Virus record (IMG/VR): IMGVR_UViG_3300025715_000009
Location: 324,269-388,268 of that record
DNA from: a virus
Taxonomy: Duplodnaviria; Caudoviricetes
Reading direction: 5' to 3' (one strand)
Length of the DNA: 64,000 nucleotides
In this document: one piece after another, positions 26,354 to 45,434 of the stretch
How the letters are laid out: each line of letters opens with the position of its first letter
How positions within the stretch are numbered: the stretch's first letter is position 1
Translations under genes and position numbers: made by a program
The notes under the pieces: generated by a model
What the model was told of the DNA's origin: nothing
Database searches by the model: none
What the model saw: only the letters and a program-made list of their open reading frames with translations

Positions 26354-26434
26354 ATAATCTCCTTTATCGGCCTAAGATAGCGAAGATTATATTTTTGAAC
26401 TGCACTGGATTCGAACCAGTGACCCACGCCTTAA

Positions 26435-27097: not shown

Positions 27098-27139
27098 AAG
27101 GGCGTTGCTCTACCATCTGAGCTAGCAGTCCAATAATAC

Positions 27140-27784: not shown

Positions 27785-27790
27785 ATTTTA

Positions 27791-28091: not shown

Positions 28092-28213
28092 ATATATACT
28101 GTTTGATTGTTTAGCTCAAACAGTAAAGCATTCTATTTGATTAAGGTTCAAATAGCAAAACCTTTGAACCAGGCGGGACTCGAACCCACATAGACCTTAC
28201 GGTCACAGATTAA

Positions 28214-28876: not shown

Positions 28877-29086
28877 AAGTCTGTTGCACAGCCTTTGTGC
28901 CACTGGTCCTAGTTAAGAATCTTGTTTAATAACTCCTGGGAATAAATAGTTGCTAGATAAGTATAATTCTTGTCATAGAGCCGAAAGACATCCCATTGCT
29001 TTGTTCCTTGAGCAGTACATACTTCAATAATATATCCATTAATATGCTTTACTTCTCTTACTTGACTCATTTATTACCTCGCATCT

Positions 29087-29757
29087 TTATATATGCTTAT
29101 TAATAAGATTATTTTTAATAATCTCTTGATTAAACCAATGAACATTGGTTTGAATATGGTTTGGTCTAACCCATTTTACTACACTCTTTCCCCAATCAAT
29201 AAGATCAATCTCATCAGCTAAACGCATTACAAAACCTTCTTGATTATTACGTAATGTATTTGGCAAAGCTTTAATCAATAATTCATCAAAAATACCATCA
29301 TAAAGAACAGGCACTGTAGAAATATCTAATTGTCTTGCAATTTCTATAGTTTCATCCCAATTAAAACACAGTTGTTTTTCCCATACATTGAACAATAAAA
29401 AATAAGATTCAAGATCTTGATAATGGATTGAATGTTTAGCATATAAATTTTCTCCACAAAGTCTAAATCCAATATGTTTCAAATCATCTGGCATTTTATC
29501 AGCTGTTTTTATAGAAAATGCAGTTACCCAATGTCTTGAAGGATGATTACAGGAATCAATAGATCTTGCGTGACATATTCCACTTGGATAAATGGTTGTA
29601 TTTTCGCCATCCATTTTTTCTGTAATAACAACTCTTTTCCCTATAAATGCAGAAAGATCATGTTGCACCTTATCATCATTACTTTTCCCTGGAGACCATG
29701 GAAGATGAAAGGTTTTTGGATATTTAGTATACAAGGTTCTTGGATATTCTTCATGCA
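29087..29757 (-). CDS. RNA ligase family nucleotidyltransferase
   Basis: KYPKTFHLPWS, TEKMDGEN, CGEN, EGFVMR, KWVR. Confidence 0.85.
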
Positions 29758-29774
29758 TAGTATTAAAAAACGAT

Positions 29775-29878
29775 GAGGTTGCTTTTATAATTGTTGCCAC
29801 CTCCCAAATCAATCAATATCTGTTATATAAAAACTAGGGTTGCTTTTATAATTGTTGCTACCCTAAATCAACCAATGT
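29775..29878. repeat. two tandem ~42-bp hairpin repeats, 61-bp period
   Basis: GGTTGCTTTTATAATTGTTGC(C/T)ACC...AAATCAA.CAAT at 29777 and 29838. Confidence 0.85.
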
Positions 29879-29925
29879 CCGCCGACTTTCTTGCAAGTGT
29901 TGAAAGTCTAACAATCACCCGGATT

Positions 29926-30272
29926 TAAGGCAGTCAGGATTTGAACCTGAAAGGGTTATACTTACTTATCACCAGACTATTCACACCCTTCTATCTTGGA
30001 AAATCTAAGGCCCTAAGATAGAGTGGATATCAAGCACTGCTTGACTCCCCCGTCTGGTCTGCCTACCCCCTCTTGACGCTTTGGGTTCTCTTTCGCAAGA
30101 TAGTCTTCAACGAAGCTGCTATCTCGTCCAGATACTGCGGTGGATAGAACGACTAATAATTTTTTACTTATTCTTCTTGACCTCCACTAGTCTTTCAGAA
30201 TAAGGCAGCAAAGTTAAATTAATTTAAGTCCATCAACTTAATGTAAGCTGTTGCTGCACCAACAACTGGACT
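29926..30272 (-). ncRNA. unassigned structured RNA ending in a tRNA T arm and acceptor strand
   Basis: ORF-free; stems AAGTCCA/TGGACTT, CTTATTCT/AGAATAAG, ACCAGAC/GTCTGGT, TCTATCTT/AAGATAGA; 3' TCAGG TTCAAAT CCTGA CTGCCTT A. Confidence 0.55.
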
Positions 30273-30273
30273 T

Positions 30274-30346
30274 TAGGAGCACAGGGATTTGAACCCTGAC
30301 TTTCAACTTTATAAGAGTTGTGTGCTGACCGTTACACTATGCTCCA
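30274..30346 (-). tRNA. tRNA-Ile(UAU)
   Basis: CAACT CT TAT AA AGTTG; complete cloverleaf with a U1.U72 mismatch. Confidence 0.85.
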
Positions 30347-30366
30347 TCGCTTGATTTATTATACTC

Positions 30367-31068
30367 TCAAATCCCCTTCTCTAAACTATTTAAAAACTTT
30401 TCAAATTCATTTTTTACAAAATCAGAATTAAATTTACCTAAATCCTTAATTATATATGCTTTATATCCACATTTTTTTATTTCTTTTAATTTTATTTTAT
30501 CTCTTGTTTGAATTTGTAATAAGCTTTGTTGTCTTTTAATTTTTTTATAATGCCAAATTCCATTCCATAAAATAGCTATATTTAAATCTTCTATAATTAT
30601 ATCAGCATCCCAACCGTTGAAACAAGGTATATTATTTTTTACACTAACAAAATGTGATTGACACATTTCATAAAATAAAATTTCATTTAATGACCTTCTT
30701 TTTTGACTAGAAGCTGATTTTTTGCCTCCATTTCTAGCATTTTTTAAAAAATCACTTCTATTGTTTTGTATGTAATTTATAAAAGCACTTTTACCATATT
30801 CTCCATTTTTATATCTAATAGAATATGTTTTAGCTTGTTTTTGAAGTCTTTCATCAGTTAATTTATTTAAATTTTTATTCCAAGCTATTCTTCCTTTTTG
30901 TCCTAAACCTGTTTTTTCACCATGATTTATACCATTTCCATGACTTCTCCAAATATGAGAACAGATTCCATTTTTAGAATAAAGTTTATCACAAATAGGA
31001 CATTTATATTTTAACGTTTTTTCATCTAACCAATTTTTATCTAAAACAATTTTAATTTCTTTATTCAT
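30367..31068 (-). CDS. free-standing homing-type endonuclease (C2H2 finger, NUMOD-like, Vsr-like PD-(D/E)XK)
   Basis: CPICD...H...H, AWNK, WDADIII....IAI.WNG.WHY, RD..K. Confidence 0.7.
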   Translation of the reverse strand: MNKEIKIVLDKNWLDEKTLKYKCPICDKLYSKNGICSHIWRSHGNGINHGEKTGLGQKGRIAWNKNLNKLTDERLQKQAKTYSIRYKNGEYGKSAFINYIQNNRSDFLKNARNGGKKSASSQKRRSLNEILFYEMCQSHFVSVKNNIPCFNGWDADIIIEDLNIAILWNGIWHYKKIKRQQSLLQIQTRDKIKLKEIKKCGYKAYIIKDLGKFNSDFVKNEFEKFLNSLEKGI

Positions 31069-31087
31069 TTATTTTAAATATGCCTAA

Positions 31088-31687
31088 TTAATCCTCTTTT
31101 TTCTTTTTAAACTCAGCAATCATTTTCTTGTTCTTTTTGTTCAACCTATCAAGAACTTCTTTTCCTTCCATCCAAATGTCTTTGTTGTCTAGAATTTGCT
31201 GTATTTCTACTTCAGTTAGAAAATCTTTATAAATAGTTTTCATCAAATTATCACTCCATTTTTTAGCATGGGTGATGTTATCATACATTTCTCCACCTTT
31301 TCCAGCAGTTATACTACTATAGTTGTGGAACATGAAATCGCTGAACTCACTTATTTCTATTTGCTGAGCACTCATAATTATGAAGGTAGCGGCTGACATA
31401 CAATCACCTTCAACTGATGCTATAACAGTTGCGTTAGTCTCTTTTAAGACACGCATCAATTGAATGGCCGTAGAGGCATCTCCTCCACGAGAGTTGATAT
31501 GGATAATTATAGTATCATTCTCTGTGGCGTTACGCATGAGATGAAACCACTCTGCATACTTTTCTGGTTGTTCAATTGCACCAGAAAGATAAAATTCATG
31601 TTTAAATCCTAAAGGGACACTGTAATAAGTTGTTTTTTGAGCCACTGGAAGACCTAGTTCATCGCTGGTATCAAATTGTTTATCCAA
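31088..31687 (-). CDS. ClpP-family protease
   Basis: IHINSRGG, CMSAAT (catalytic Ser), FMFH, DIWM. Confidence 0.85.
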   Translation of the reverse strand: MDKQFDTSDELGLPVAQKTTYYSVPLGFKHEFYLSGAIEQPEKYAEWFHLMRNATENDTIIIHINSRGGDASTAIQLMRVLKETNATVIASVEGDCMSAATFIIMSAQQIEISEFSDFMFHNYSSITAGKGGEMYDNITHAKKWSDNLMKTIYKDFLTEVEIQQILDNKDIWMEGKEVLDRLNKKNKKMIAEFKKKKED

Positions 31688-31704
31688 ATTTTGCTCCTTT
31701 TAAC

Positions 31705-31776
31705 AGCACATATCGGGAATCGAACCCGAATCCGAACCTTGGCAAGGTCCTATAATAACCTTTATACTATATGTGC
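31705..31776 (-). tRNA. tRNA-Gly(GCC)
   Basis: GGACC TT GCC AA GGTTC; U73; overlaps the tdk stop codon. Confidence 0.9.
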
Positions 31777-32297
31777 ATTTTTGTAAAATAACATTTGGCA
31801 CAAAGAGCTGTATATGCTTGTTGTCCTCCTACAACTACTTTTTCAGTTTTATTTCCTTCTTTAAAATAAGTATAATTACCAAGTTCATTACCACACTCAG
31901 TACATATGGCATTTAATTTAATTATGCTATCGCAATATGGAATTGTCTGCACTATCTCATCAAACATTTCGCTTTCACTAGTTGCATGCAGAGCAGATAT
32001 ATATATGTCTTTATTGTTATAGTTTGCTTTGATTATAAAATTTTTTAATGATTTATGAAATTGTCCTTCATCAATTCCAATTACGTCATAATTAGATAAA
32101 TCAAAATTTGATAAGTCAGAAATAAAAGCAGTTTTTAACCATTTAATCTCTTTTTGACTATGGCTCAAGAATCCACGATTATCAATTTCTGGTCTTAATA
32201 GAATTACTCTTTTTTTAGCTATATAAGCTCTTTCTAATTTTGTTAGTAATTCACTTGTTTTGCCTGAAAACATTGGTCCTAGTAATAATGTTATCAT
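31767..32297 (-). CDS. tdk: thymidine kinase
   Basis: GPMFSGKTSEL, IGIDEGQF, AIC..C, GG...Y.ALC..C. Confidence 0.93.
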   Translation of the reverse strand: MITLLLGPMFSGKTSELLTKLERAYIAKKRVILLRPEIDNRGFLSHSQKEIKWLKTAFISDLSNFDLSNYDVIGIDEGQFHKSLKNFIIKANYNNKDIYISALHATSESEMFDEIVQTIPYCDSIIKLNAICTECGNELGNYTYFKEGNKTEKVVVGGQQAYTALCAKCYFTKMHI

Positions 32298-32744
32298 TCA
32301 ATTTCTTCTTTCCATCTTTTATGAAATGATTCTTCACCATCATCACCACTTAAAAGCCAATCAATTCTACCAACCATAAGAGATGCTTTTTTTAATATAT
32401 CAATTGTTTCTCTAAATTTAGCCAATGTTTCTGATGAGAAATTTTGACTAAATCCAAATTCATCTACTTTATTATTTTTCTCTATTGCTCTTTCTATTTC
32501 GTCTGCTATATCTGTTAATCTATATTGATTGTAATCAAAGTAACCACCGCTCATATTATTCTCCTTTAGAAGAAATATGCTTTTCGTTATACTCCTTTAC
32601 TTGATCAATCAAATAATCCATAAAATGAAATCCATGTAATTTTTGGAGTTTTATCAACTCCTCTTCAATATGTTTGAGCATGTCTTTGTCCATCACACCT
32701 CCTTTTTTTTAATAATATATCTTGCAAAAAAGAAGAGAGAAAAT

Positions 32745-32818
32745 TAGCCCTCTTGGGATTTGAACCCAAATTTATACGGTCTAAACGTATTGACTCTGCC
32801 AAATTGGTCTAGAGGGCC
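32745..32818 (-). tRNA. tRNA-Leu(UAG), short variable loop
   Basis: ATACG TT TAG AC CGTAT AAAT TTGGG TTCAAAT CCCAA; A73. Confidence 0.88.
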
Positions 32819-32830
32819 AAAAGATTTAAA

Positions 32831-33472
32831 TTAATTATTTGTTTTTTTTTTTTTTTGGATTCTTCCTTTTTTCCATCCAAAAGGTATTTGTTCTTCTTTA
32901 TTAATTTTTTTATTAATTATATCATTTGTAATCCACATAGTATTATATTGGCTATTTTTAGAACCTTGTTGATGTTTAATTTTAGCAAAAGTTTCTTTCT
33001 TTCTATTTATTGTGTCTAAACTATTAGCTTTTTTACTCATCTTTATAAGACGATTCAAATTTTCCTTAGAAACAAGATATCTATTTCTTTTTTCAACACT
33101 ATATTCAGAAAACATCCCCATACTATTTTCATATAAATATTTTCCACAAATTTTACCACCAATTTTTCCTGCTTTGGATAAAATATTAAAATCTGCTCCT
33201 CTACCACCAGTAGATATATTATATGTATCTTCTCTTAAGATAAAACCTGTATTAACTATTTCGATTTCTTTTTGAAACATATCATTTTCATTGTCAAAAA
33301 ATTCTAATATTTCTTTTTTAAAGTTTTTTAATCCATATTTATCTTGTGCGTGTTTTAATATAATTCCAGAGCCCATATAATTGTCATCTAAATTATTAGT
33401 ACGATGAACACCAATGTAAATTCTACCATTTAATAAATTAGTAATTTTATATAAATAATAATATGTATACAT
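32831..33472 (-). CDS. GIY-YIG homing endonuclease (Seg-like)
   Basis: YLYKITNLLNGRIYIGVH...YMGSG...YG..NF.KEIL...E, YN...GG, C-terminal WITN...GW..GR. Confidence 0.9.
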   Translation of the reverse strand: MYTYYYLYKITNLLNGRIYIGVHRTNNLDDNYMGSGIILKHAQDKYGLKNFKKEILEFFDNENDMFQKEIEIVNTGFILREDTYNISTGGRGADFNILSKAGKIGGKICGKYLYENSMGMFSEYSVEKRNRYLVSKENLNRLIKMSKKANSLDTINRKKETFAKIKHQQGSKNSQYNTMWITNDIINKKINKEEQIPFGWKKGRIQKKKKTNN

Positions 33473-33525
33473 ATTATTATCTTATAAGGAACTATTAATT
33501 AAATTAAGTTCGATTTAATAATTAT

Positions 33526-33597
33526 GGGTCCCAACGGGAATCGAACCCGTATTTAGAGATTGAAAATCTCTCGAACTGACCGTTGTTCGATGGGACC
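33526..33597 (-). tRNA. tRNA-Glu(UUC)
   Basis: GGTCCCA...AGAGA TT TTC AA TCTCT...TGGGACC. Confidence 0.9.
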
Positions 33598-33602
33598 AGG
33601 TT

Positions 33603-34070
33603 TTATAACTTTTTTTCTTTCTGCATTCTCTTTGTAATTTCTCGTGCTTCAATTTCCCAAGGAGAGGAATAATAATCTAAATCTTCAAATTCACCTAGTC
33701 TTTTTTTCTTCCAAAAAACAAACACATTATTACTTCTTAATTGATAACAGACCCAAGACATTTTACCACTTGTATATTGTTTTACATGGACAAGTTCATG
33801 CATTAGTGTTCTTAATAAATGATACCTTTTAGTAATCAAATCCTTTCTTATATAAATAAGATGTTTATTTGGTGGTTTTTTATTTGGTCTTGTAATGGGT
33901 GCAAGACAATAAACCCCCATAACTTTTTTTGATTGATTAGGTATTTTTTTTACAAATCTAATAATAATGTTTTCTGTATTTTTTATACCAAGAAGTTTAA
34001 TATATTTTTCTACTTTATTCTTAATATAAAGAGTTTTTCTTTTTTCAAGATTTAATATATTAACATTCAT
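33603..34070 (-). CDS. zincin-like metallopeptidase
   Basis: TLMHELVHVKQ and PWEIEA. Confidence 0.75.
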   Translation of the reverse strand: MNVNILNLEKRKTLYIKNKVEKYIKLLGIKNTENIIIRFVKKIPNQSKKVMGVYCLAPITRPNKKPPNKHLIYIRKDLITKRYHLLRTLMHELVHVKQYTSGKMSWVCYQLRSNNVFVFWKKKRLGEFEDLDYYSSPWEIEAREITKRMQKEKKL

Positions 34071-34073
34071 AAA

Positions 34074-34147
34074 AGCGCTATAAGGGATTCGAACCCTTAC
34101 CTTCAGAGTGGAAGTCTGGAGTGCTAGCCATTAAACACCAATAGCGC
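34074..34147 (-). tRNA. tRNA-Gly(UCC)
   Basis: CCAGA CT TCC AC TCTGA; U73. Confidence 0.9.
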
Positions 34148-34151
34148 ATGA

Positions 34152-34223
34152 TGCTCCTACCTGGGTTTGAGCCAGGAATCGCGACTTTATAAGAATCGAT
34201 GGGAGACCCTCCCTCCTAGGAGC
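34152..34223 (-). tRNA. atypical tRNA with anticodon UAU (Ile)
   Basis: GCTCCTA/TAGGAGC; CGATT CT TAT AA AGTCG; lacks U8; T loop CTCAAAC. Confidence 0.6.
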
Positions 34224-34228
34224 AAGTA

Positions 34229-34303
34229 TACCCTCAGTGAGATTCGAACTCACACTGTATAGGTTCTTAGCCTATTGCCATCTACCAGTTGGGCTATGAG
34301 GGC
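34229..34303 (-). tRNA. tRNA-Leu(AAG), short variable loop
   Basis: ATAGG CT AAG AA CCTAT ACAGT GTGAG TTCGAAT CTCAC; A73. Confidence 0.88.
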
Positions 34304-34543
34304 ATGTCTTCAAGCATTAATCTATATTGAATATGATGACCAAAAGAATCTTCGGTTATCCATTCTTTTTTATCTATTTTTAATTTATCAGCAAAAAAAT
34401 CTGTTAAAAAAACAAAAGCCTCTTTTGTATTTGTTATTTTTATTGATTCTGTTTTTTCTTCTGTTGAGGAATAAAACAGATGATAAGTCTTTTTTTCCTT
34501 TTTAATAATCAAACCATTTTCAGCTTCATAAATCTCCATTAAC

Positions 34544-34939
34544 TTACGCATTTTTTACCTCTTTTTCATTATCATATATTGCAAAAAACTTGTTTCCATC
34601 TGTATGTGTATCCACAAAAATCATAGTATATTTTTCACCTCTATAAATCCATTTACTATAAAATCTTTGAGTGTAGATTTCATGTTCATAACTATTTCCG
34701 TCTCTATCTTCTACAAACTCTTTTGTTTCATGAAATGTAACTCCTTGAGACTCAGAGGGTTCTAATTTCTCACCGGTCTGTTTTTCATGCATTTCTCTCA
34801 TCCAAGATGCATATTCAGGTGTAATTTTCCAGTACATTTCTGTATAATCTTCTATAGGATAAATAACATAATCTTCAACAAATCCAACATGGTCATAAAT
34901 TGCTTGTTTAGCCTTATTAAAATCATCAATCAAACTCAT
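34544..34939 (-). CDS. hypothetical protein, paralog of 34952..35233
   Basis: Shared YPIED.TEM.W, IYR..KYT, G.KF.AIYDNEKE. Confidence 0.75.
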   Translation of the reverse strand: MSLIDDFNKAKQAIYDHVGFVEDYVIYPIEDYTEMYWKITPEYASWMREMHEKQTGEKLEPSESQGVTFHETKEFVEDRDGNSYEHEIYTQRFYSKWIYRGEKYTMIFVDTHTDGNKFFAIYDNEKEVKNA

Positions 34940-34951
34940 TTTTATCTCCTA

Positions 34952-35233
34952 TCAAGTAAAATAATATGGAGGAGGCTTGATTTCTTTTTCATTATCATAT
35001 ATCGCCAAGAATTTACCTTCACCCATATTAAGTTGAATAACCATCAAAGTATATTTCCCTTGACGATAAATATGCTCATCACAGATTGTATCAATATGAT
35101 AATCCCAATCTGACATAAATCCTTCTAATGTCGTAGAGTATCTAACACCTAAGCCAATCATAAATTTGTCATTCACTTGCCAAAACATCTCGGTTCTATC
35201 CTCTATAGGATAGTCTACATCCTGATTAAACAC
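34952..35233 (-). CDS. hypothetical protein, paralog of 34544..34939
   Basis: Tandem paralog. Confidence 0.65.
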   Translation of the reverse strand: MFNQDVDYPIEDRTEMFWQVNDKFMIGLGVRYSTTLEGFMSDWDYHIDTICDEHIYRQGKYTLMVIQLNMGEGKFLAIYDNEKEIKPPPYYFT

Positions 35234-35246
35234 TCTAAATTCCTTA

Positions 35247-35321
35247 TGCTCCTAGATGGATTCGAACCCTCATCTTATAGATTCTTAGCCTATTGCTATC
35301 CATCAGTTGGGTTATGATGGC
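35247..35321 (-). pseudogene. chimeric pseudo-tRNA-Leu(AAG)
   Basis: 5' part resembles 34229..34303, 3' end resembles 35977..36051; acceptor strands GCCATCA/TAGGAGC pair poorly. Confidence 0.75.
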
Positions 35322-35348
35322 ATATAGCAAGTTTCCCTGCGTTAAGAA

Positions 35349-35774
35349 CTATGCTAAAATCTTGTCAATACAAGATTTAGCAATTTTCATATCCATTCCA
35401 GGAATTGACTTTAGAACTGGCATAATGTTTTTTACCACTTTTTCTTCATCAGGTAAAGAATTGATTACTTCTTTAACCTTTGCAAGAATTTGTTCTTCTG
35501 TCAACCCTTGTGGAATGAACTCTTCAAGGATAGTGATCTCACGCTCAAGGTGTGAATAATCACCATTTCCTTTTTTATATTCTTCGATTGCCTTCAAAGC
35601 TTCATTCTTCATTTTTTTAGCAGCTGAACCAATGTCATCGTCCATTACTTCACGAAGTTGGGTTTTAGCTGTTTTCTTGGCATTATCAACAAGCATACCA
35701 AGAACTGAAGACCTTTCAGGATTTGTCAATCTTATGACAATCTTTTCTTTGAGCAATTCTTGAATTTTATTCAT
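35349..35774 (-). CDS. GatB/YqeY-domain protein
   Basis: AIEEYKKG......E.EI.ILEEFIP..LTEEQI...V...I. Confidence 0.75.
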   Translation of the reverse strand: MNKIQELLKEKIVIRLTNPERSSVLGMLVDNAKKTAKTQLREVMDDDIGSAAKKMKNEALKAIEEYKKGNGDYSHLEREITILEEFIPQGLTEEQILAKVKEVINSLPDEEKVVKNIMPVLKSIPGMDMKIAKSCIDKILA

Positions 35775-35976
35775 TTTTTCCCCTATAGATTAATTTTTCT
35801 AATTTTAGCTTTTCCACAAATTTTACAACGTGAAATTTGTTTTAAATATCTTCCTGTGGGAAAATTTGTACTATTTCCAAAACCATCACCATATAACGCG
35901 GTAATTCCTACGTCTTGCCATTCTCCGTATTTATGGAAATGAAGCTTCATTTTTAAACCTCCAAATGTTTTTTTTA

Positions 35977-36051
35977 TGCTCCTAGAGGGATTCGAACCCT
36001 CACTTGATAGTTTTTGAAACTATTGCCATCTGCCAGTTGGGCTATAGGAGC
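35977..36051 (-). tRNA. tRNA-Leu(CAA), short variable loop
   Basis: ATAGT TT CAA AA ACTAT CAAGT GAGGG TTCGAAT CCCTC; A73. Confidence 0.9.
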
Positions 36052-36056
36052 AAATA

Positions 36057-36137
36057 TGCGGCCGGAGAGACTTGAACTCTCAATCCTTTCGGCACTAGCA
36101 CCTCAAGCTAGCGTGTATTCCGTTCCACCACGACCGC
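36057..36137 (-). tRNA. tRNA-Leu(GAG), class II
   Basis: CTAGC TT GAG GT GCTAG plus long variable arm. Confidence 0.92.
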
Positions 36138-36808
36138 GTTAAACCTCATTTTTATAACTCTCTTGTAATTTATCCCAATAACCATCTTCATTCTGATAGC
36201 GGATGACTGCCTGCACCTCTTCTGGGAAAGAGAGTCTCATCCTCTCTAAATTACCCCTATCTGCTTTGAAAATAGCTTGAAATAGGTTGTTAAAAAATGA
36301 ACCAGACATATCATTCATAAATTCAAATAGATGGCGCTCTCCCTCTGTCATTTTTTCTCTCCTTAAATAGTTCTTTGTAATAATCAATAATCTTGGAAGT
36401 TATATCTGTATGAAAATGCAAGAAATAACGAACAAATTCATCTTGCTTTCTTCCTCTAGTCAGCTGCTCCATATATGCTATGAACTCACTGAAAACAGGG
36501 TTTTTTGACTTTTCTACTAGTTCTTGTTCAAACTTTTTATACTTTCTCTTATGTTTATTAACGTATTCCTCTACTTCAATATCCATCTTTTTCTCCTTAG
36601 GAAATTGTTTCTAAGATAGTAATAGAATTTATAGAGTAGTAGACTGCATATTCTTGTGTCATATCATTAAAATATGCTTCAACTTTCTGATAGGCTTGTT
36701 TTTCATCATCAGCCTCGACAAGTCTAAATTCAGCCTTCTCTTCACCATGGTCGTGCATATAATACGTTTTAGTATAAGAAACTTGTGCTAAAAATAACAT
36801 ACTTCCTC

Positions 36809-37747
36809 CTAACATCCTCTACCAGAGCCACAGCATCCACCACCTCGAATGGAAGTAGATTTTTTCTTTCTTGACTCTTCGCCAAGATGAATTAGTCCTT
36901 CTTTTGCCATTTTAACAATCTGATTAGGTGTATATAATTCATCTTCTAGAGTTATAATTTCCTCCTTTCCTTCCCAATCCATTGTCAATTTACCATTTTG
37001 CTGATAAATAAGTTCATATACACTATCAGTAATTGTCTCTTTTGGTTCTGCCATTGAACTCTTCCACTGAACTTTCATACCCAAGATAAGCTGTTCTTTA
37101 GTGTAGCATACAGGACATTTGCCAACATAAAGTGGTTTATAATCATTAAAGAATAATTCCTGATTTGAAGGTTCAAGATTACCATGTTGTTTACGAAAAG
37201 CAATGGAAGAAAAATTACTCTGTTTAGCAAATTGAATAAATTCTTCAATGCTCTCTCTAGAATCATATTCCTCTGTCAAAACACAATTAGCATTTACATC
37301 AATTCCAATCTTGTTCAGTTTATTGATAAGCTGAACAAGGCTATCATTTGATGGGATGGTATCTGTTCCAAACATTTCCATATTTTTATCATTATCATGA
37401 TGATGGCGACTTATATTCACATGAAATTTTGTTTTGGTTTTTTTAAGTAGTTTTTCAATTTCTGGAATATATGTTTCTAGATTACAACCATTAGTTGTCA
37501 ACACTACTTTAGAAAATTTAGCAAAAGCAATTTTCAGAACATCAATAAAATGAACTGAAAGTGTAGGTTCTCCACCGGTAAGTGAACACTGTTTAAAATG
37601 TGATGGAATAGAAAGTAAAGTAGATTTAAGCTTTTCTAGATAATCTTCACTTGCCTTTTCTTCTTTCCAGAAACAGAAAGAGCAGTGAGCATTGCATCCA
37701 CCAGGGAGAACAATAGAAAAATTAGGTTCTGTGTTAAAGGTTTTCAT
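36809..37747 (-). CDS. radical SAM protein
   Basis: CNAHCSFC, LTGGEPT, LTTNG; Gly/Cys tail GGGCCGSGRGC. Confidence 0.88.
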   Translation of the reverse strand: MKTFNTEPNFSIVLPGGCNAHCSFCFWKEEKASEDYLEKLKSTLLSIPSHFKQCSLTGGEPTLSVHFIDVLKIAFAKFSKVVLTTNGCNLETYIPEIEKLLKKTKTKFHVNISRHHHDNDKNMEMFGTDTIPSNDSLVQLINKLNKIGIDVNANCVLTEEYDSRESIEEFIQFAKQSNFSSIAFRKQHGNLEPSNQELFFNDYKPLYVGKCPVCYTKEQLILGMKVQWKSSMAEPKETITDSVYELIYQQNGKLTMDWEGKEEIITLEDELYTPNQIVKMAKEGLIHLGEESRKKKSTSIRGGGCCGSGRGC

Positions 37748-37772
37748 TGTATCCTCTTATGTTTATTTGTTT

Positions 37773-37800
37773 ATTATACAATGTTTTTCCTTTGTCTAAA
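37773..37800 (-). promoter_or_regulatory. early-type promoter TTTAGA-N16-TATAAT
   Basis: Motif match upstream of the radical SAM gene. Confidence 0.7.
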
Positions 37801-37803
37801 CTA

Positions 37804-37875
37804 TAGTCCCTACGAGAATCGAACTCGTATCTAGACCTTGAGAGGGTCTCGGCCTAACCATTAGCCGAAGGGACC
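37804..37875 (-). tRNA. tRNA-Glu(CUC)
   Basis: AGACC CT CTC AA GGTCT. Confidence 0.92.
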
Positions 37876-37877
37876 AA

Positions 37878-37996
37878 GTTGTTGATTTTCTCCACTAGGG
37901 AGAGGCTCTCATTTCGTTCATATAAGCTCGTAGACCTGAGAATTTTCAAGCATTTTTGCTTTACTTTCCAGGGCGAGGTGAACTAAAATCATCAAC
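37878..37996 (-). ncRNA. putative structured RNA between two tRNAs
   Basis: Ends pair (GTTGATGATTTT/AAAATCAACAAC) and it fills the inter-tRNA gap. Confidence 0.45.
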
Positions 37997-38003
37997 GTCC
38001 TAT

Positions 38004-38077
38004 TAGTCCTGACGAGATTCGAACTCGTTCCTTCACCTTGAAAGGGTGACCACCTAACCAATTAGTAAGACAGGACC
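38004..38077 (-). tRNA. tRNA-Glu(UUC)
   Basis: TCACC CT TTC AA GGTGA. Confidence 0.9.
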
Positions 38078-38618
38078 ATGTAATTACGGCTCTACATTAA
38101 GACCAGCAATAACTCCTTCGATAAATTCTTCCTTATAAACTATACGGGTAGAGGTTTTCTCTATCCCTTCACGAATTACACTACCAACAAGTGTACCCAT
38201 ATCAAAATCATTATGAATGCCAAATTTCTTGTAAGCAGATTTAATTATAATCGAAATCATTTCTTCAGCTTTCATCTTATAATCTCCTTGCATAAGATTA
38301 TACACTATAATATATGCTTTCTAAAAATTTTTTGCAAAGTAACTGTCTTCTTCTTCAAAAAGATGTTTTATGGTATTTCTTTTTAAGTTCTCCGCTTCAA
38401 CTTCTTGAATTTCTTGACCATAATAGAAATGTTTATCATATAGATAGAACTTATCACCGGCAATATCATAAAACCAGACATGTATGCTTTCTGGTACAGT
38501 ATCAGGTTTTCCTACTAGAAATGTTTTCATAGAAGAGGATGAAGATATTCTATAAAAATGTCCAGGTTTTGCATCTTGTGTTTTCATATAGTTATCTTGT
38601 TTAAATTATGCAAAATAA

Positions 38619-38691
38619 TGAACCCAGCAGGGGTCGAACCTGCGACGAATAGATTAAGAGTCTATCACTCTACCAACTGAGTTATGGGTCC
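38619..38691 (-). tRNA. tRNA-Lys(CUU)
   Basis: ATAGA CT CTT AA TCTAT; G2.U71. Confidence 0.93.
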
Positions 38692-38820
38692 AAAGATAAA
38701 GATCTACTAAATCTTTATCAAGGAGTTTTTACCTCACCAAATAAGATTTCAAAATAAAAGCTTTTAGTAGTCTTTTATTTTTCTATGCAAATTTAGCTTC
38801 TGGGTATCCCTCAAACCATA

Positions 38821-38893
38821 TTGCAGCGACAGGAGTCGAACCTGCTATCTTCACCTTATGAGAGTGATATGAATTCCGTTTCACCCCGCTACA
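38821..38893 (-). tRNA. tRNA with anticodon CAU (Met/fMet-like)
   Basis: TCACT CT CAT AA GGTGA; TGTAGCG/CGCTGCA. Confidence 0.8.
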
Positions 38894-38895
38894 AT

Positions 38896-38969
38896 TGAAC
38901 CTAGTAGGATTTGAACCTACAACCTTCGGGTTAAAAGCCCGTCGATCTACCAGATTGATCTATAGGTCC
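38896..38969 (-). tRNA. tRNA-Lys(UUU), intronless
   Basis: ACGGG CT TTT AA CCCGA; G2.U71. Confidence 0.93.
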
Positions 38970-39061
38970 ATAAAACTGAGGTTTATTAAATCACTCCACT
39001 TTATAGACGTCATCATTTGTGGTGATATTTAATTCCTCAGGGGAAGTGCGACTTCCCAGAA

Positions 39062-39133
39062 TGAGCGGTAGAGGAGTCGAACCTCTCTTGACTGGATTAA
39101 GAGGCCAGCACATCACCGATCTGTCAACCGCCC
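39062..39133 (-). tRNA. tRNA-Lys(CUU), atypical
   Basis: CTGGC CT CTT AA TCCAG; GGGCGGT/ACCGCTC; weak D stem. Confidence 0.75.
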
Positions 39134-39214
39134 AAATAAGAAACCCTTCTCTATATTATCAAGGAACAATGGTGAGAGAGGGGCTTGAACCCTCGATGGG
39201 CACCATTTATTATA

Positions 39215-39288
39215 TAGTGACGAGTGGACTCGAACCACTGCATAACTGGTTTATGGGACCAGGGCATTACCTTCTTTGCTACGTCACC
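39215..39288 (-). tRNA. nested tRNA with anticodon CAU (Met/Ile2), C33
   Basis: GGTGACG...CTGGT CC CAT AA ACCAG...AGTGG TTCGAGT CCACT CGTCACT A. Confidence 0.85.
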
Positions 39289-39965
39289 AAATAATCTAAG
39301 ATAGACTTTCCATTTTTTATTGCATTAATTTCTTTTCTTTTTAAAACAATCAATTTTTCATTAAACTGGCTCCATTTTGCTTTATCTTTTTCAGTTTCAT
39401 ATCCTTTAACTTCTATATAAATATTTAAATTTTCTATATAAAAATCAGGATAATAAATCTTATTTTTATTATGAAATAAATAAGTAAATCCCGTTGGTTT
39501 TTTAGGAATAATATTATTTTTTCTTAATTCATAATAGACTAATTCCTCCCATGATCCCAATAATCCAAATCCATCAATTTCTTTATATTTTACATATCCT
39601 CTGTTATATCTACCAGAATATTGTTCAGCTTTTTCTATAGCAACTTTTTTCATTGATTTAGAGATTTTTTCTTTTGTTTCATCAGATAAACTTTTACCTT
39701 TTAATTGATGAATAATTTCTCCACTTTTGTATTTTTCTTTTAATGTATCAGAACATTTCTTATGCCAATTAGGATGTTCATTTTGCCAATCCTTAGAAAA
39801 ACAACCTTTCACTTTTGAATAAGATTCTGGGTGTTCTTTATGTGCTTTTTTTCCTCCTTCTGAATTTTTCTTTTTAGCTTCATCTGTTTTTGGATAGCAT
39901 GAGTTACAATAGCCAGTAATAGAAGAATCAGAAATTTCTTTATAACAATTTTTACAAAATTTCAT
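39279..39965 (-). CDS. homing-type endonuclease (Zn finger, NUMOD3, TnsA-like PD-(D/E)XK)
   Basis: CKNC...C..C, LSDETKEKIS, SWE, YYPDFY...YIEVKG; stop codon lies inside the nested tRNA. Confidence 0.8.
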   Translation of the reverse strand: MKFCKNCYKEISDSSITGYCNSCYPKTDEAKKKNSEGGKKAHKEHPESYSKVKGCFSKDWQNEHPNWHKKCSDTLKEKYKSGEIIHQLKGKSLSDETKEKISKSMKKVAIEKAEQYSGRYNRGYVKYKEIDGFGLLGSWEELVYYELRKNNIIPKKPTGFTYLFHNKNKIYYPDFYIENLNIYIEVKGYETEKDKAKWSQFNEKLIVLKRKEINAIKNGKSILDYLVT

Positions 39966-40038
39966 ATATTTATCTGTCTCCCAATTATTAAAAAATTAAA
40001 AGTGCTGCCTTACCAACTTGGCTATCTCACCATAAAAA

Positions 40039-40108
40039 GAGGGTGTTCTACCGATTAAACTACCGCCCCTTTTTAGGGGCAGATGGGGCTCGAACCCATA
40101 TCTCCCTG
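40039..40108 (-). ncRNA. circularly permuted tRNA-like gene (YrlA-like topology)
   Basis: CAGGG AGAT ATGGG TTCGAGC CCCAT CTGCCCC TAAAAA GGGGCGG TA GTTT AATCGGTA GAAC A CCCTC: T arm, then looped acceptor stem, then D arm. Confidence 0.75.
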
Positions 40109-40112
40109 GTTG

Positions 40113-40186
40113 TCCTGATCCTGGGATTCGAACCCAGACATGACCTGATCTTCAGTCAGGTGCGCTACCAATTGCGCTAAATCAGG
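40113..40186 (-). tRNA. tRNA-Phe(GAA)
   Basis: CCTGA CT GAA GA TCAGG. Confidence 0.88.
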
Positions 40187-40191
40187 ATAAA

Positions 40192-40366
40192 ATCAATCTC
40201 ATTCGTCCCTTTTCAGACCATAACCTTTGCTTAGGTTTCACAAGGTAGGAACTATTTGCCTCCTTAAGCATGGAATTCCTTTTCGATAGCTACTATATGG
40301 TATTTCAACCACCACTCTTATTTAATCGTCCATAGATTAAATAAGTTTTTGCTACCGGAGATTGAT
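40192..40366 (-). ncRNA. putative ~175-nt multibranch structured RNA
   Basis: Terminal ATCAATCTC/GAGATTGAT; internal CTTATTTAATC/GATTAAATAAG, ACCATA/TATGGT, TGCTTA/TAAGCA. Confidence 0.55.
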
Positions 40367-40368
40367 AT

Positions 40369-40451
40369 TGCCCAGTGTGGGAGTCGAACCCACTGAACCT
40401 TAGGTGACGATTTTACAGACCGCTCCGCTTCCGATTACGGGATACCTGGGC
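40369..40451 (-). tRNA. tRNA-Tyr(GUA), class II
   Basis: GCGGT CT GTA AA ATCGT plus variable arm. Confidence 0.88.
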
Positions 40452-40487
40452 AAAAACTTGGGCCGGGTAGGACTCGAACCTACGGTA

Positions 40488-40573
40488 TGGGGAGTGAAGG
40501 AATCGAACCTCTTCGCCGCCACCTACCTTTTATATGACAAGTGATTTACAGTCACCCGGCAGGAACACTCCCC
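40488..40573 (-). tRNA. nested atypical tRNA-Tyr(GUA) with reduced D arm and enlarged variable arm
   Basis: GGGGAGT/ACTCCCC; GGTGA CT GTA AA TCACT; bulged T stem with TTCGATT loop. Confidence 0.65.
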
Positions 40574-41085
40574 GTAATAATTTTGCCATTTTTTACATAA
40601 TAAAATTTTTTCCAAGAATCTCCTATATAATCTTGCATATTTACTAGCTTATCAAATTTAAGAACCCCTGAATGAACTAGTCTATGACAATTTGGGCAAA
40701 GATATGTTAAATTACTCATCTCATCAGTTCCGCCCTTTTTCTTTTCAACAATATGATGTACATCACAAGATACATTAACAACATACCATCCACAAAAAAA
40801 ACATGGCAATTCCATTCTTCTTAAAATTTTCATAACAGTTCTTTTGCTTAAATCCATAATTGAAGTTACTTCTGTTTCTCTTACATAAGAAGCATGTTTT
40901 TCTTTATTCTTTTTTTGCCTCTTTTGTTCTAATGTTAAGCCATCTTTTCTTAACTTTTTAGAAACTTTTTTATTTATTTCTTTTCTTTTTTCTTTTGTAC
41001 TAAACCCCCTAGCACATGTAGAAGAACAAAATCTTCTTGACCCATAAGAACCATCATGCTCTTGTCCACAATTTTCACATTTCAT
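40552..41085 (-). CDS. HNH endonuclease
   Basis: Start MKCENCG; CFFCG...DVHHI....GG..E.SNL..LCPNCH; stop codon lies inside the nested tRNA. Confidence 0.88.
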   Translation of the reverse strand: MKCENCGQEHDGSYGSRRFCSSTCARGFSTKEKRKEINKKVSKKLRKDGLTLEQKRQKKNKEKHASYVRETEVTSIMDLSKRTVMKILRRMELPCFFCGWYVVNVSCDVHHIVEKKKGGTDEMSNLTYLCPNCHRLVHSGVLKFDKLVNMQDYIGDSWKKFYYVKNGKIITGSVPAG

Positions 41086-41195
41086 ATTCGAACCCCCTAA
41101 GATATATTTATCTTTACAGTTAGTTCGAATACAGTTAATTTTATTATAAAATTTACAGTCTCTTGCCTTCGCCGCTAGACTACCGACCCATAATA

Positions 41196-41268
41196 TGCCA
41201 GAGGTCAGAATTGAACTGACGACAAACAGATTTTCAGTCTGCTGCTCTACCAACTGAGCTACTCCGGC
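41196..41268 (-). tRNA. tRNA-Phe(GAA)
   Basis: GCAGA CT GAA AA TCTGT; canonical. Confidence 0.95.
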
Positions 41269-41720
41269 ATTTCTCCTTCTCTAAATTGTCAATAAAAAAG
41301 CTCCCATTTTCATGGGAGCTTGTAATCACTTCTTTATATGACTACTACTCCCTGAACATGTCTCCTTCAAGTTCCATGCCTTTGAGTATAAAATAATACT
41401 TTTTAAAAGTAATAGTCATTTGCTTTTCCTTTCTCCTATATATATGCATTTATCTTACACAATTTTATCAAAAAGTACAATTTTTCTAAAAATTTTTCCA
41501 AGCATTAGTCATAATCTGGACGTCTTCTTCATCTATCTCAAGAGCATCCAGGGCAGCAGCAACTCGACGCTTGGAATCAAAGAAAGTTCTATTTCTCTCA
41601 CACCAAGGACATCCACCATGAGGGCGACAAGTCTTATCATACTTACCAGCTCCATAATAAGGCTTGCGATGTTCCTTGCCATGACGAATAGCTTTGTCCA
41701 GCATGTTGCCTCCTAAAAAG

Positions 41721-41748
41721 ATTATATAGCAAAAAAAACCTCTCTAAA
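41721..41748 (-). promoter_or_regulatory. early-type promoter TTTAGA-N16-TATAAT
   Basis: Motif match upstream of 41486..41704. Confidence 0.7.
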
Positions 41749-41985
41749 CAGAGAGGTTTGCTTTTTATTAATAATCTTGCAATTCTTTTTCAAGCTTGAC
41801 GATTACACTTTGTATAATGTCAGCTTTCTTTTCCTTTTGTGGGAAAAACACTGTATTCAAGTCCTTGGCAACCTGTAAAAGGGTTACGATTTTGGTAGTC
41901 TTCTCTTCAAGTGTTTTTGCTTCCATACAACTAGCACCTCCGATTTAAAATTTTTAGATTGTTATACAATCATATATAAATATGC

Positions 41986-42426
41986 TTAGATTTGTCTCCA
42001 ACTCTTGGTATTCATTATTTTCTTCTTTTTCTTGGTTGTTGATTCTGTAATTTGTTCAATTGGTGTTTTGAATAAAATTGGTGGGATAAGAGTAAAGAGA
42101 GTGAGCAATGCTCCTGCCATCCAAGATTCATACCATGGAAAATAGATAAATGGGCCTCCTAGAGCAAAAAGCCAAACAATAAAAGCTAAAGTTGAAATAA
42201 CAATTTGTTTTATATTTTTTACATCTAGAGTAAATCTAAGATAAAGTGGAACTAGTATAGCAAGTGGAATTGCTACAAATAATGCTCCAGTTAAAGTAGC
42301 AGGAACAAATGTCATAGCAATAGTATAAATTGCTAATATCTCAGCAGGAATCAATTTTACTAAATTTACAAGATATTCTTGAATTTGCATTTTTACGTAT
42401 TCTGTGTTTATATCACTCATCTTCAC
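41986..42426 (-). CDS. 4-TM membrane protein
   Basis: Four hydrophobic segments; LVKLIPAEI..IY. Confidence 0.7.
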   Translation of the reverse strand: MKMSDINTEYVKMQIQEYLVNLVKLIPAEILAIYTIAMTFVPATLTGALFVAIPLAILVPLYLRFTLDVKNIKQIVISTLAFIVWLFALGGPFIYFPWYESWMAGALLTLFTLIPPILFKTPIEQITESTTKKKKKIMNTKSWRQI

Positions 42427-42877
42427 TCCTTAATTAATTACTATGATTTGTTTTTTATCTCTTGGTGTATTTTTAAATTGTATCTTGGCTTTTTGATATA
42501 CTTTTCTAAATTGAAAATAGACCTCTCGTTCTTTTGCTTCAGAAGAAGATTTAAATTTGCTATAATTTTTAAAATGTGGAAATTTTTCTACAATTGCTTT
42601 TCTCAATTCTTTACACTGTTTTTCATTCATATAAACTCCTTGGATATATATTCTTTTAATTCCTCTTTTGGAATTATATAACAATCATCATACAACAACA
42701 TTTCTTTAGCAATAGAATCTTGAGTCATTTTATCTCTTCTTTTATTGTCTTGTTGTTGAATAAATCTTTCTATTTTAAATGCTATTTGTTTTGCAAATAA
42801 ATCTGCACTGAGTTTTATTTCATTATAAGCTTTTAATGCTTCTAGAAAATTTTTAATTTTATTAAACATATATATAA

Positions 42878-43843
42878 TTATGCTTTTTTCTTTTCAATTA
42901 AAATTTTAAACATATCATAAAAATATTTATTTAATTCGCCCTTTTTTACCATTTTGTCCATAATATCAAAAGCTTTTTCATCACTATTCTCTATACGATA
43001 TGCACGCTTACTTGTAAGAGCATCATAAATATCTGCAATAGTTGTCATTTGAACAATTAACGGAATGTCATCGCCTTTTAATTTATCAGGGTATCCAGAC
43101 CCATCTAATTTTTCATGATGTGAACGAATAATGGGAATTGCATTTTGTAAATTTTTTAAATCTTTACATATTTCATAACCTATTTCTGGATGTTTTTCTA
43201 CTTCTTGTCTTTCTTTTGGAGTTAGTGGTTTGCTGCTTTTTAAAATTGAATCAGGTGTTCCTAATTTTCCGATATCATGTAATAAACACCCAACTTCTAA
43301 ACTATTTCTTTCATCAAAATTATCAAATCCTACTTCGTCATATAACATTAAAGAATAATCAGCAACTCTTCTAGAATGACCTTCGGTATAAGAATCTCTT
43401 GTTTCAACAGCTTTTGTTAAAGCCATGATAATTGTTTGAGCTTGTTCTAATGACTCATAAGCATCTAACAAATTAAGAAGATTATTGGCTATTGCTAAAA
43501 GCTCTTGCCCATTGAATGGTTTGCTCAAGAACATATTAGCACCTTTTTTTAAGGCAGGTATTTTTATTTCGCTACCTTCACCAGACAACATAATAACTGG
43601 TAAATTCTTCATCATACTTTTTTCATTTCTTAACTCAGAAATAAACGATATACCATCACCATCAGGAAGGTTGTAATCAATGATTAAAAGATGAATATCA
43701 ATATTCTCAAGTATTTGTTTGGCTTTAGCTAAATTATCACAATGGAGAACATCAATATTTTCAGAGGAGTTTAATATTCTAAGTAATATATCGACGATTT
43801 GTTTATCATCATCTACTATTAATACAGTATAGTTCCTTTCCAT
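42878..43843 (-). CDS. response regulator with HD-GYP c-di-GMP phosphodiesterase domain
   Basis: REC (VLIVDDD, IDYNLPDGDG, KP) plus YTEGHS.RV, LHDIGK, HHEKLDGSGYP, ADIYDAL. Confidence 0.95.
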   Translation of the reverse strand: MERNYTVLIVDDDKQIVDILLRILNSSENIDVLHCDNLAKAKQILENIDIHLLIIDYNLPDGDGISFISELRNEKSMMKNLPVIMLSGEGSEIKIPALKKGANMFLSKPFNGQELLAIANNLLNLLDAYESLEQAQTIIMALTKAVETRDSYTEGHSRRVADYSLMLYDEVGFDNFDERNSLEVGCLLHDIGKLGTPDSILKSSKPLTPKERQEVEKHPEIGYEICKDLKNLQNAIPIIRSHHEKLDGSGYPDKLKGDDIPLIVQMTTIADIYDALTSKRAYRIENSDEKAFDIMDKMVKKGELNKYFYDMFKILIEKKKA

Positions 43844-45434
43844 GATAATTTAAAATCAGATGATTTTTCCTCTTCAATCCATTTTTTATTTTTTAAATAA
43901 TATTGTTTGTCTTCTAGTAATATGATAAAATCCATATCATACTGGTCCAAATAATGCTCATCAACCATTTTTTCAAACTTGTCTTTAGACATCTCAATCA
44001 TTAATATTCCAGAAACATCATATTTATTTTTTTCTAAAATGGAACCAGTTAAATAAAAATTTTCAGCATCATATTTATCAAACACCTCTTGTTTTATCTT
44101 TCCAAAAATATTATGATATGATAAAATTATATCTTTTCTTTTAGAATCTTTTTCCATTTCTTCTATTGAAGAATAATATTGTTTTTTATCTTTGGCATTA
44201 TTAAATTGCATTTTGTCTCCTTATAGGAATAGATAATGAAAAAAAGAAAATATTAATACACAAAGAATATAATAATGCAATCAAAAAATATTTACCAAAG
44301 AATAATAAAACCATTGATGTTATCAATTTTTTTGTAATTACAATAAAAAGTGATATACTAAGCCACCAATTAATAAATACAACAAATATACATATATATA
44401 TTAATATTCTTAAAGTATTAATTATTTTTTTGTGATAAACAGAAAGAAAATACAATTGAGATATATGAATTTGCACAAGAATTAAAAATAAACTAAATAA
44501 AGCGCCTGCAATAGCAATAGGTAAATATCCATAAGTCATATCATAATTAAATTGTTTACCGAAATCATAAAGCATGTGTAATCCAAAAGAAACAAAAGCA
44601 AGTAATAAAACAAGATATGCTATTATTTTAGCTGCTATGTTGATTGAATTCATATAATGTCATCTCCAAATAATTCTTTAGCAAAAACATAAACAGGAGA
44701 TTTAATTTTTACAAGAACTTGAATATGAACAAACTCTTGTCCGTCTAATATCTCATCTTGTATATCTTTATCTAATTGGTGATAAGCTTTAATAAAACTT
44801 TTAGAAATTGTGAAATAAAATGGACTTATCATTTCTTGAATTGCACATAGCACACCATCAGAAATATATTGACCATTTTTAACATCATGAAACCATGACC
44901 AAATAGTTGAATATTCACAATCTCCAATTCTATTTCTCATAAATTTAAATGTATTGGCTATATCTTGCATCATCTTTTTTTCTGTAGATATTGTCTTGGT
45001 CATTTTTAATTTCATTCTATAATCATGATATTGTTCATATACTTTTTTTGTTTTTAATTGAGCTGGAAAGATTTTTTCACTTTTATTTAAATTTCTAAAA
45101 ACAGAATCAATAAAATTGTTTATATCAAAATTCTCATCTTCTTTATATTTATCCCAACATTCAACAAAATATGACCAGTTTTTAGATTGACGAATTATAT
45201 CGCCAGGCCTCAAATCATCTCTATCTGGGTCTGGATTAAACTTGGAATATATTGATGGAAGCCAAACATTTTTATCACCACGCTTATTTGTTTGTTTTTG
45301 AAAAGCTTCATATATATGATATGCTTGTTTTTCATCATATGATAAATCGCCCCAAATATAAGTATTTAGGTTTTTATTTTTTTCAGGAGCATCTTTTCTA
45401 TGATTAATTTTATTTTCTAATTTATCAAATAGTG

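Follow-up and report, generated by a model that had tools for sequence, protein, structure and literature searches.

We analysed the final 64 kb (64,000 nucleotides, hereafter the window) of a virus record of 388,268 bp, which CheckV estimates to be 98% complete. ARAGORN finds 59 tRNA genes in this record, all of them on the minus strand. The locus described here lies on that strand between two tRNA-Phe genes (41269-41195 and 40186-40112, both minus strand), and its features are likewise given on the minus strand. Read from 5' to 3', it starts with a 39-nt remnant of a canonical class II tRNA-Tyr(GUA) gene (41151..41189), hereafter the outer gene, comprising the acceptor strand, the D arm, the first half of the anticodon stem and its loop as far as position 38/39. 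A junction filler, TTTATAATAAAATTAACTGTA, with a small AT hairpin (41130..41150) is followed by an AT-rich leader read from the sequence (41086..41129), a gene for an HNH homing endonuclease of 177 aa (40552..41085; Pfam PF01844 and PHROGs) and a second, non-canonical tRNA-Tyr(GUA) gene of 86 nt (40488..40573), hereafter the inner gene, which was delimited by a covariance model (R1), pair counts, RNAalifold and a per-sequence parse. The trinucleotide TAC (40485..40487) connects this inner gene to the 26-nt 3' remnant of the outer gene (40459..40484), which holds the last base of the variable arm, the T arm, the 3' acceptor strand and A73. Eight nucleotides downstream of the broken gene, ARAGORN calls an intact canonical class II tRNA-Tyr(GUA) (40369..40450).

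Other features of this phage also concern its tRNA genes. A minus-strand tRNA-Leu(UAA) at 27790-28092 of the window carries a group I intron (27860-28067; Rfam RF00028, 58.4 bits), and the tRNAs at 28165-28909 and 26395-27132, both minus strand, carry near-identical introns of 663 nt that contain ORFs and R/S-like group I elements; Rfam finds fragments of these two introns. At 27630-27784 (minus strand), an Rfam tRNA match of 36.7 bits contains an insertion of about 99 nt that replaces the anticodon arm and the variable region; ARAGORN run with -i reads this stretch as a tRNA-Leu with a 73-nt intron. Between the downstream tRNA-Phe and the next nuclease cassette, 40035-40111 (minus strand) gives a weak match to the Y RNA-like YrlA family (24 bits against a cutoff of 69). 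Outside the window, a tRNA with a CTA anticodon (G000:C1:293264-293335), labelled 'Pyl' by ARAGORN, is an amber suppressor and raises the question of TAG read-through.

An initial annotation, made from the letters of the window, had described a tRNA-Tyr broken after the anticodon that encloses an atypical tRNA-Tyr with the same anticodon. Both observations hold. The outer pieces, 41189-41151 and 40484-40459 on the minus strand, have complementary acceptor strands (GGGTCGG / CCGGCCC), and the loop CTGTAAA is found in the outer gene as well as in the inner one, where the anticodon occupies 40549-40547. Comparison with empty alleles had been proposed as a check. When metagenomes were scanned with 21 nt from the 5' half of the outer gene, seven contigs with a matching tRNA-Tyr(GUA) gene were returned; the gene is whole in six and truncated by the contig end in L098. 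In contigs L099 and L100, a whole tRNA-Tyr(GUA) gene of 82 nt matches both outer pieces exactly: its first 39 nt and last 26 nt are identical to the window, and the 17 nt between them, CTCCCACAAGGAAACAT, are absent here. These missing bases make up the second half of the anticodon stem together with the variable arm, and 666 bp (41150-40485) stand in their place. Identity to the intact allele ends at 41151 and resumes at 40484.

The gene is therefore polymorphic for the presence of an insertion at a defined site, intact in L099/L100 and interrupted here, the two alleles belonging to different phage lineages. The intact allele comes from a different phage, so no single lineage shows the site both empty and occupied. 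A search through the adjoining response-regulator protein yielded 15 contigs, and all informative near-identical ones of this phage carry the HNH gene; the same protein led to no related phages among viral contigs, and a gapped pattern for the intact allele had 0 matches in IMG/VR. L099 and L100 have two tandem Tyr genes, and by this comparison the intact tRNA-Tyr at 40369..40450 is the second member of an original tandem Tyr pair.

The HNH open reading frame matches Pfam PF01844 at 42.8 bits (cutoff 21.4) over profile positions 1-46 of 47, and its PHROGs matches are HNH families. The protein combines an N-terminal zinc-ribbon/basic module with a complete HNH domain and has 260 homologues, the best of which beyond a cluster of identical sequences are 57-68% identical over the full length. 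The final 22 nt of the reading frame overlap the inner tRNA gene, whose anticodon stem contains the stop codon TGA (40554-40552). This arrangement is found again in L012/L013, where an HNH homologue with 66% identity overlaps the same kind of RNA in the same way, and the unit in L012 has no flanking tRNA-Tyr halves. At the DNA level, homology to the L012 cassette (73.5% identity) extends over 41129-40486 of the window, so that its ends fall 21 nt and 1 nt inside the limits of the insertion and leave the filler outside. Because the limits of homology nearly match those of the insertion, we conclude that leader, HNH gene and tRNA move as one unit. The intact outer allele elsewhere, together with the HNH/inner-tRNA unit in L012, thus bears out the suggestion of the initial annotation that the disrupted gene receives, along with the HNH cassette, a tRNA of identical anticodon. 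The phage with the L012 unit also has a tRNA-Arg(UCU) with a 191-nt group I intron (L012:1535-1799; Rfam, 59 bits).

We sampled eleven genomic contexts of the HNH gene (the window, L012, L014, L036, L016, L018 and L105-L109), and in all eleven it adjoins or interrupts a tRNA-Tyr(GUA) gene. The nuclease gene stops at most 3 nt before a downstream Tyr gene or extends into it in six of these contexts, and a Tyr gene terminates about 6-65 nt upstream in three. L016 retains an orphan Tyr 5' half that stops right after the anticodon loop. In L108 (1113-1787), the HNH gene alone sits within a tRNA-Tyr at position 37/38, with nothing lost and without a spare tRNA. Its non-coding parts could not accommodate a ribozyme, and this Tyr gene is either dead or interrupted by an intron of a new kind. 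Three independent breaks, in the window, L016 and L108, thus fall at tRNA positions of about 37-44, which suggests that the nuclease is specific for tRNA-Tyr genes in this region.

What remote relatives share with the HNH protein is the N-terminal zinc-ribbon/basic module alone; their nuclease domains differ, and they too lie in phage tRNA arrays. In L004 and L006-L011 (2492 onward), for example, a zinc-ribbon/KEKRKEIN module is fused to other nuclease domains, DUF559/Vsr-like in L004 and without an assigned family in the others; these fusions look like domain shuffling among the homing nucleases of tRNA arrays. The record itself encodes an HNH paralogue outside the window (G000:C1:306053-306586, locus L002) with 35% identity and the same N-terminal module and leader hairpin. 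It follows a tRNA-Thr and is followed by an orphan tRNA 3' fragment consisting of a T arm and the acceptor strand CGGGGGC. Nuclease reading frames of this family that end within a downstream tRNA or at most 3 nt from it are found at 40552-40573 of the window, at L012:1046-1067, at L106:1728-1764 and near 3140-3170 in L007, L008 and L004. Since RNase P cutting of a co-transcript would remove the stop codon of such a reading frame, nuclease expression could be coupled to tRNA processing.

The motif ACTGTA, reported earlier to occur three times at the 5' junction, is indeed present at 41159-41154, 41135-41130 and 41120-41115. On the minus strand of the whole 64 kb it has nine copies, four of them within the locus, far above chance. 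The three junction copies differ in their setting: the first is the anticodon loop of the outer gene, the second belongs to the 21-nt filler and the third to a leader conserved in the HNH family. In that leader, an inverted repeat TTCGAAC...GTTCGAA encloses the third copy, an AAGATA/TATCTT hairpin and the ribosome-binding site GGGGG, and the succession TT(C/T)GAAC and (A/G)(C/G)TGT(A/G) recurs ahead of HNH homologues. Autorepression by I-TevI is a precedent for an operator of a homing endonuclease gene, and by analogy the target-like motif in the HNH leader could act as an operator. A scan for sigma-70 promoters gave weak 9-of-12 matches only, none of them usable.

The inner RNA departs from the cloverleaf. 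The initial annotation had given it almost no D arm, a variable region of roughly 25 nt and a bulged T stem. The reduction of the D arm was rightly noted and is complete, with no D hairpin whatsoever, and the variable region is indeed long, at about 28 nt (inner nt 35-62), and holds a strand that pairs with nt 11-16. The bulge did not survive reanalysis: with an acceptor of 8 bp, the T stem has 4 bp and is unbulged. In the numbering of the inner RNA, the acceptor helix (1-8/78-85) is formed by GGGGAGTG and CACTCCCC, and the anticodon arm (17-35) has the stem GGTGA / TCACT. A helix designated H pairs a 5' strand, H5' (11-16, CCTGCC), with a 3' strand, H3' (47-52, GGTAGG), that lies within the loop of the variable arm and is followed by TGG at 53-55. 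The variable stem, helix V (35-38/57-60; TGTC / GGCG), is weak, two of its 4 bp being G-U. The T arm consists of the stem GAGG / CCTT and the loop TTCGATT, and A73 is present. Covariance model R1 gives this copy 88.6 bits, whereas canonical tRNAs reach 40 bits at most. ARAGORN makes no call for the inner gene, and Rfam has no match to it at E<=1 in the window. It is a single copy in the whole record and is identical across all near-identical phage contigs.

The inner gene belongs to a larger family. A pattern built from three copies, and requiring the Tyr anticodon loop, matched 74 places in IMG/VR, 40 of which have the same architecture. The family comprises at least 29 distinct sequences of 84-91 nt that lie in phage tRNA arrays and score 64.9-100.2 bits with R1 (other tRNAs, at most 40). 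From the 5' end, the shared layout is an acceptor strand of the 8-bp stem, 2 nt, the 6-nt H5', a G and an anticodon stem of 5-6 bp with the loop CUGUAAA. After the anticodon arm come a V5' strand of 4-6 nt, an A/U-rich stretch, the 6-nt H3', a conserved YGG and V3'. The 3' end is made up of a T stem of 3-4 bp with the loop TTCRAYT, the 3' acceptor strand and A73. Acceptor and anticodon stems are only 8-9 nt apart, and no canonical D hairpin is found between them. The partner of strand 11-16 is located at alignment columns 50-56, after the anticodon arm, and a D hairpin like that of tRNA-Sec is absent.

This base pairing is conserved across the family. Of the 27 sequences gathered first, 26 have an H3' that perfectly complements H5', and one has a single bulged base; at least 16 distinct H5'/H3' pairs occur. 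In alignment A4, pairing in helix H reaches 100%, and both sides vary in four of the six base pairs. According to pair counts, which rest on an alignment fitted to the model, the acceptor is 99% paired; pair 8-84 is GC in 23 sequences, AU in four and UG in two, and 22 of 29 sequences do not form the canonical pair 68-84. Acceptor and T stem together form a 12-bp branch (8 bp + 4 bp), as in (8/4) tRNAs. The loop CTGTAAA and the T, T, C and A of the T loop are invariant, and A73 is found in 28 of 29 sequences. Covariation over the whole structure is 0.64, compared with 0.16 for shuffled alignments (0 of 500 reach the observed value) and 0.09-0.13 with the partners slid; the variable stem covaries too. 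RNAalifold predicts the same nested helices when they are not supplied.

As helices H and V cross, the predicted fold is a pseudoknot. H5' sits at the place of tRNA positions 22-25; the A/U stretch resembles positions 8-9, H3' positions 10-13 and YGG G18-G19. The impression is of a tRNA whose positions 8-21 have been transferred to the variable arm. The 6-bp 'D-stem' is accordingly read as a strand just 5' of position 26 paired with a strand in the variable-arm loop, and the conserved YGG could substitute for G18-G19. Such a rewired tRNA fold appears to be new; a search of the literature found no tRNA with a D stem built from the variable arm.

ARAGORN made no call at any distinct family locus scanned, and Rfam at its gathering score called none of nine family members and all of their neighbours. 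Two members compared by blastn with 50,697 GenBank phage records had no match, and the sole megablast match of the locus covered 38 nt of a tRNA. Among the matches listed for the pattern in cellular genomes, 80 bacterial or archaeal loci were inspected, and none belongs to the family. An anticodon-blind version of the pattern returned only CTGTAAA (GUA) members and no other anticodon on the same scaffold. Within the reach of these searches, the rewired family is widespread and confined to phages. Most members have no HNH gene nearby, which argues that the inner RNA is not an accessory of the nuclease.

Several properties of the family lead us to think that it is a working tRNA-Tyr. Twenty-five of 28 distinct family genes lie in stretches with no other called Tyr tRNA, and arrays of 21-26 tRNAs (L026, L044 and L083) lack only Tyr and one other amino acid. 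Gaps to the flanking tRNAs are often 1-9 nt. CCA is encoded after A73 in 17 of 28 family genes, compared with 223 of 338 neighbouring tRNAs. Bacterial tyrosyl-tRNA synthetase recognizes its tRNA by the anticodon GUA, A73, G1-C72 and a long variable arm, and all of these features are present in the family alignment, together with U33, A37 and the T-loop consensus. Charging of the RNA with tyrosine would be consistent with this set. Lack of a D arm need not preclude translation, as HisRS, EF-Tu and ribosomes of E. coli take a D-armless tRNA (PMC11551756). Judged by its place in the arrays, the odd tRNA seems to serve many uncultured phages as their regular tRNA-Tyr.

Alternatively, the inner RNA might be a conserved RNA that is no adaptor, either an uncharged mimic absorbing nucleases directed at tRNA-Tyr or an element for processing or stability of the HNH transcript. 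It has no D hairpin and is missed by both ARAGORN and Rfam, and a canonical tRNA-Tyr adjoins it in this phage. Moreover, the HNH stop codon lies within the RNA and would be removed by RNase P cleavage, and both Septu and retron-Eco7 are known to attack tRNA-Tyr (PMC13096335). Against this, most family members are found without an HNH gene nearby and in arrays with no other called tRNA-Tyr, the family retains G1-C72, A73, the 12-bp acceptor/T branch, the T-loop consensus and encoded CCA, and D-armless tRNAs can function in bacterial translation (PMC11551756). We regard a non-adaptor role as unlikely. This includes the decoy for Tyr-specific anticodon nucleases suggested in the initial annotation, which loses ground because the RNA family fills the Tyr slot of near-complete phage tRNA sets, carries G1-C72 and A73, and has an encoded CCA at the rate of its neighbours. 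A decaying tRNA-Tyr pseudogene, scrambled by recombination and functionless, is scarcely credible. The part GGTAGGTGGCGGCGAAG of the inner variable region does resemble the D arm of the outer gene, and tRNA fragments abound at the locus. However, all helices are kept by compensatory changes in 29 distinct sequences, an alignment artefact is at odds with the 6-nt strands of helix H, which are perfectly complementary in 26 of the first 27 sequences, and the inner copy is unchanged in all near-identical phage contigs.

The outer gene, for its part, could be an intron gene from which about 650 nt, with the HNH gene and most of the inner structure, is spliced to leave a working tRNA. The ARAGORN intron search does report an 83-nt tRNA-Tyr with a 650-nt intron, the phage has genuine group I introns in tRNA-Leu(UAA) and two other tRNAs, and an RNA ligase gene is nearby. 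Yet 17 nt of the outer gene are absent relative to the intact allele. For its '3' exon', ARAGORN fills this gap in the anticodon stem and variable arm with bases from the T stem and acceptor strand of the inner tRNA. These borrowed bases are conserved in L012, which has no outer gene. A ribozyme core would not fit into the non-coding parts of about 65 and 50 nt, the 5' exon of that reading terminates in A and not U, and inspection of the sequence found no splice register that gives both a 5' U and an intron-terminal G. Rfam RF00028 had no match at E<=1 over 28000-44000, as against 58.4 bits for the tRNA-Leu intron. We therefore reject splicing, given the 17-nt loss, the bases borrowed from the inner tRNA and the lack of a group I core over that range, and hold it to be very improbable. 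The 650-nt intron of ARAGORN is an artefact, ruled out by the 17-nt loss and by its '3' exon' being the 3' end of the inner tRNA, and a group I intron reading was dropped, Rfam being silent at the locus. Both outer pieces are best read as dead, unspliced remnants.

The reading we favour, and consider likely as a whole, is that a mobile cassette of an HNH gene and a spare tRNA wrecked a resident tRNA-Tyr, the spare being a member of the phage-only, rewired tRNA-Tyr family. The cassette (41150-40485, 666 bp), in which a structured leader precedes the HNH gene and a tRNA-Tyr gene is fused to the HNH 3' end, entered a canonical tRNA-Tyr(GUA) at the 3' edge of the anticodon loop and replaced 17 bp. 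As a putative mechanism, the HNH protein would recognize the stretch from anticodon loop to variable arm in tRNA-Tyr genes and cut naive copies, and repair at the cut would copy the cassette in. The spare tRNA would compensate for the loss and, being very different in sequence 3' of the loop, would be shielded from renewed cutting. Inner and target genes share an 11-nt core, GACTGTAAATC, which makes the immunity of the inner gene to the HNH protein an assumption. The canonical tRNA-Tyr that follows 8 nt downstream could make the inner gene redundant in this phage.

Parts of this arrangement resemble known systems. SegB of T4/T6 and other free-standing homing endonucleases of tRNA clusters are likewise nucleases among phage tRNAs, linked to tRNA-Tyr and spreading with flanking tRNA sequence (PMC2330249; PMC13096335). 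Unlike the present nuclease, however, SegB is a GIY-YIG enzyme and intergenic; here a putative HNH homing endonuclease with a zinc-ribbon N-terminus is encoded inside a broken tRNA-Tyr, and its gene is fused to a spare one. Group I introns with homing endonucleases also interrupt tRNAs in the anticodon loop with an endonuclease ORF, whereas at this locus there is no ribozyme core, 17 nt are lost and function would be restored by a second gene instead of splicing.

Among unusual tRNAs, the (8/4) or allo-tRNAs (Mukai et al. 2017, PMC5389517), some of which occur in phage tRNA clusters (PMC5389517), share with the rewired family an 8-bp acceptor with a short T stem, a long variable arm, a 6-bp D-type helix and a long (6-bp) anticodon stem. 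They keep a D hairpin with a long stem and a tetraloop and serve Ser, His, Cys and Sec (PMC5389517), whereas the partner strand here lies in the variable-arm loop and the anticodon is that of Tyr. D-armless mitochondrial tRNA-Ser of nematodes and mammals (PMC7609411) and the engineered 'mini HisT' (PMC11551756) also have no D hairpin between acceptor and anticodon stems. In those molecules, the arm is simply lost and the variable region is short; the 84-91-nt RNAs of the rewired family would instead form a D-like helix by long-range pairing.

A further parallel concerns defence. Septu and retron-Eco7 cut tRNA-Tyr in the variable loop, and the tRNA-Tyr of T5 is reported to be resistant owing to its distinctive variable loop (PMC13096335; PMC11555353). 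In T5 and T6, as possibly here, the variable arm of a phage tRNA-Tyr matters for escape from retron-Eco7 or Septu (PMC11555353; PMC13096335); the T5/T6 molecules are cloverleaves, whereas the rewired family has a predicted non-cloverleaf fold and may escape such nucleases. The region lost from the outer gene includes the variable arm, the same arm that Septu and retron-Eco7 attack. Since both kinds of enzyme would act there, a rebuilt variable arm could escape nucleases at the RNA level and the HNH protein at the DNA level. The rebuilt arm may have been selected because RNA cleavage by Septu and retron-Eco7 and, probably, gene cutting by the HNH protein fall in this arm of tRNA-Tyr.

Taken together, we see an even chance that the sole tyrosine tRNA of many uncultured phages is a working, non-cloverleaf adaptor, in which the 5' strand of the D stem and an equivalent of G18-G19 lie in the loop of the variable arm and form a pseudoknot, and which may have evolved under attack on that arm by RNases and homing endonucleases. 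All known bacterial tRNAs were described as cloverleaves in a 2024 paper (PMC11551756); if our proposal is true, the family would be a natural counter-example and a new scaffold for the engineering of orthogonal tRNAs. Because standard tRNA finders overlook the family, phage tRNA sets appear to lack Tyr. The family is a candidate structural escape variant in the arms race between phages and hosts over tRNAs, and the locus would represent a lineage of HNH nucleases specific for tRNA-Tyr with a 'destroy and replace' layout of nuclease and spare tRNA.
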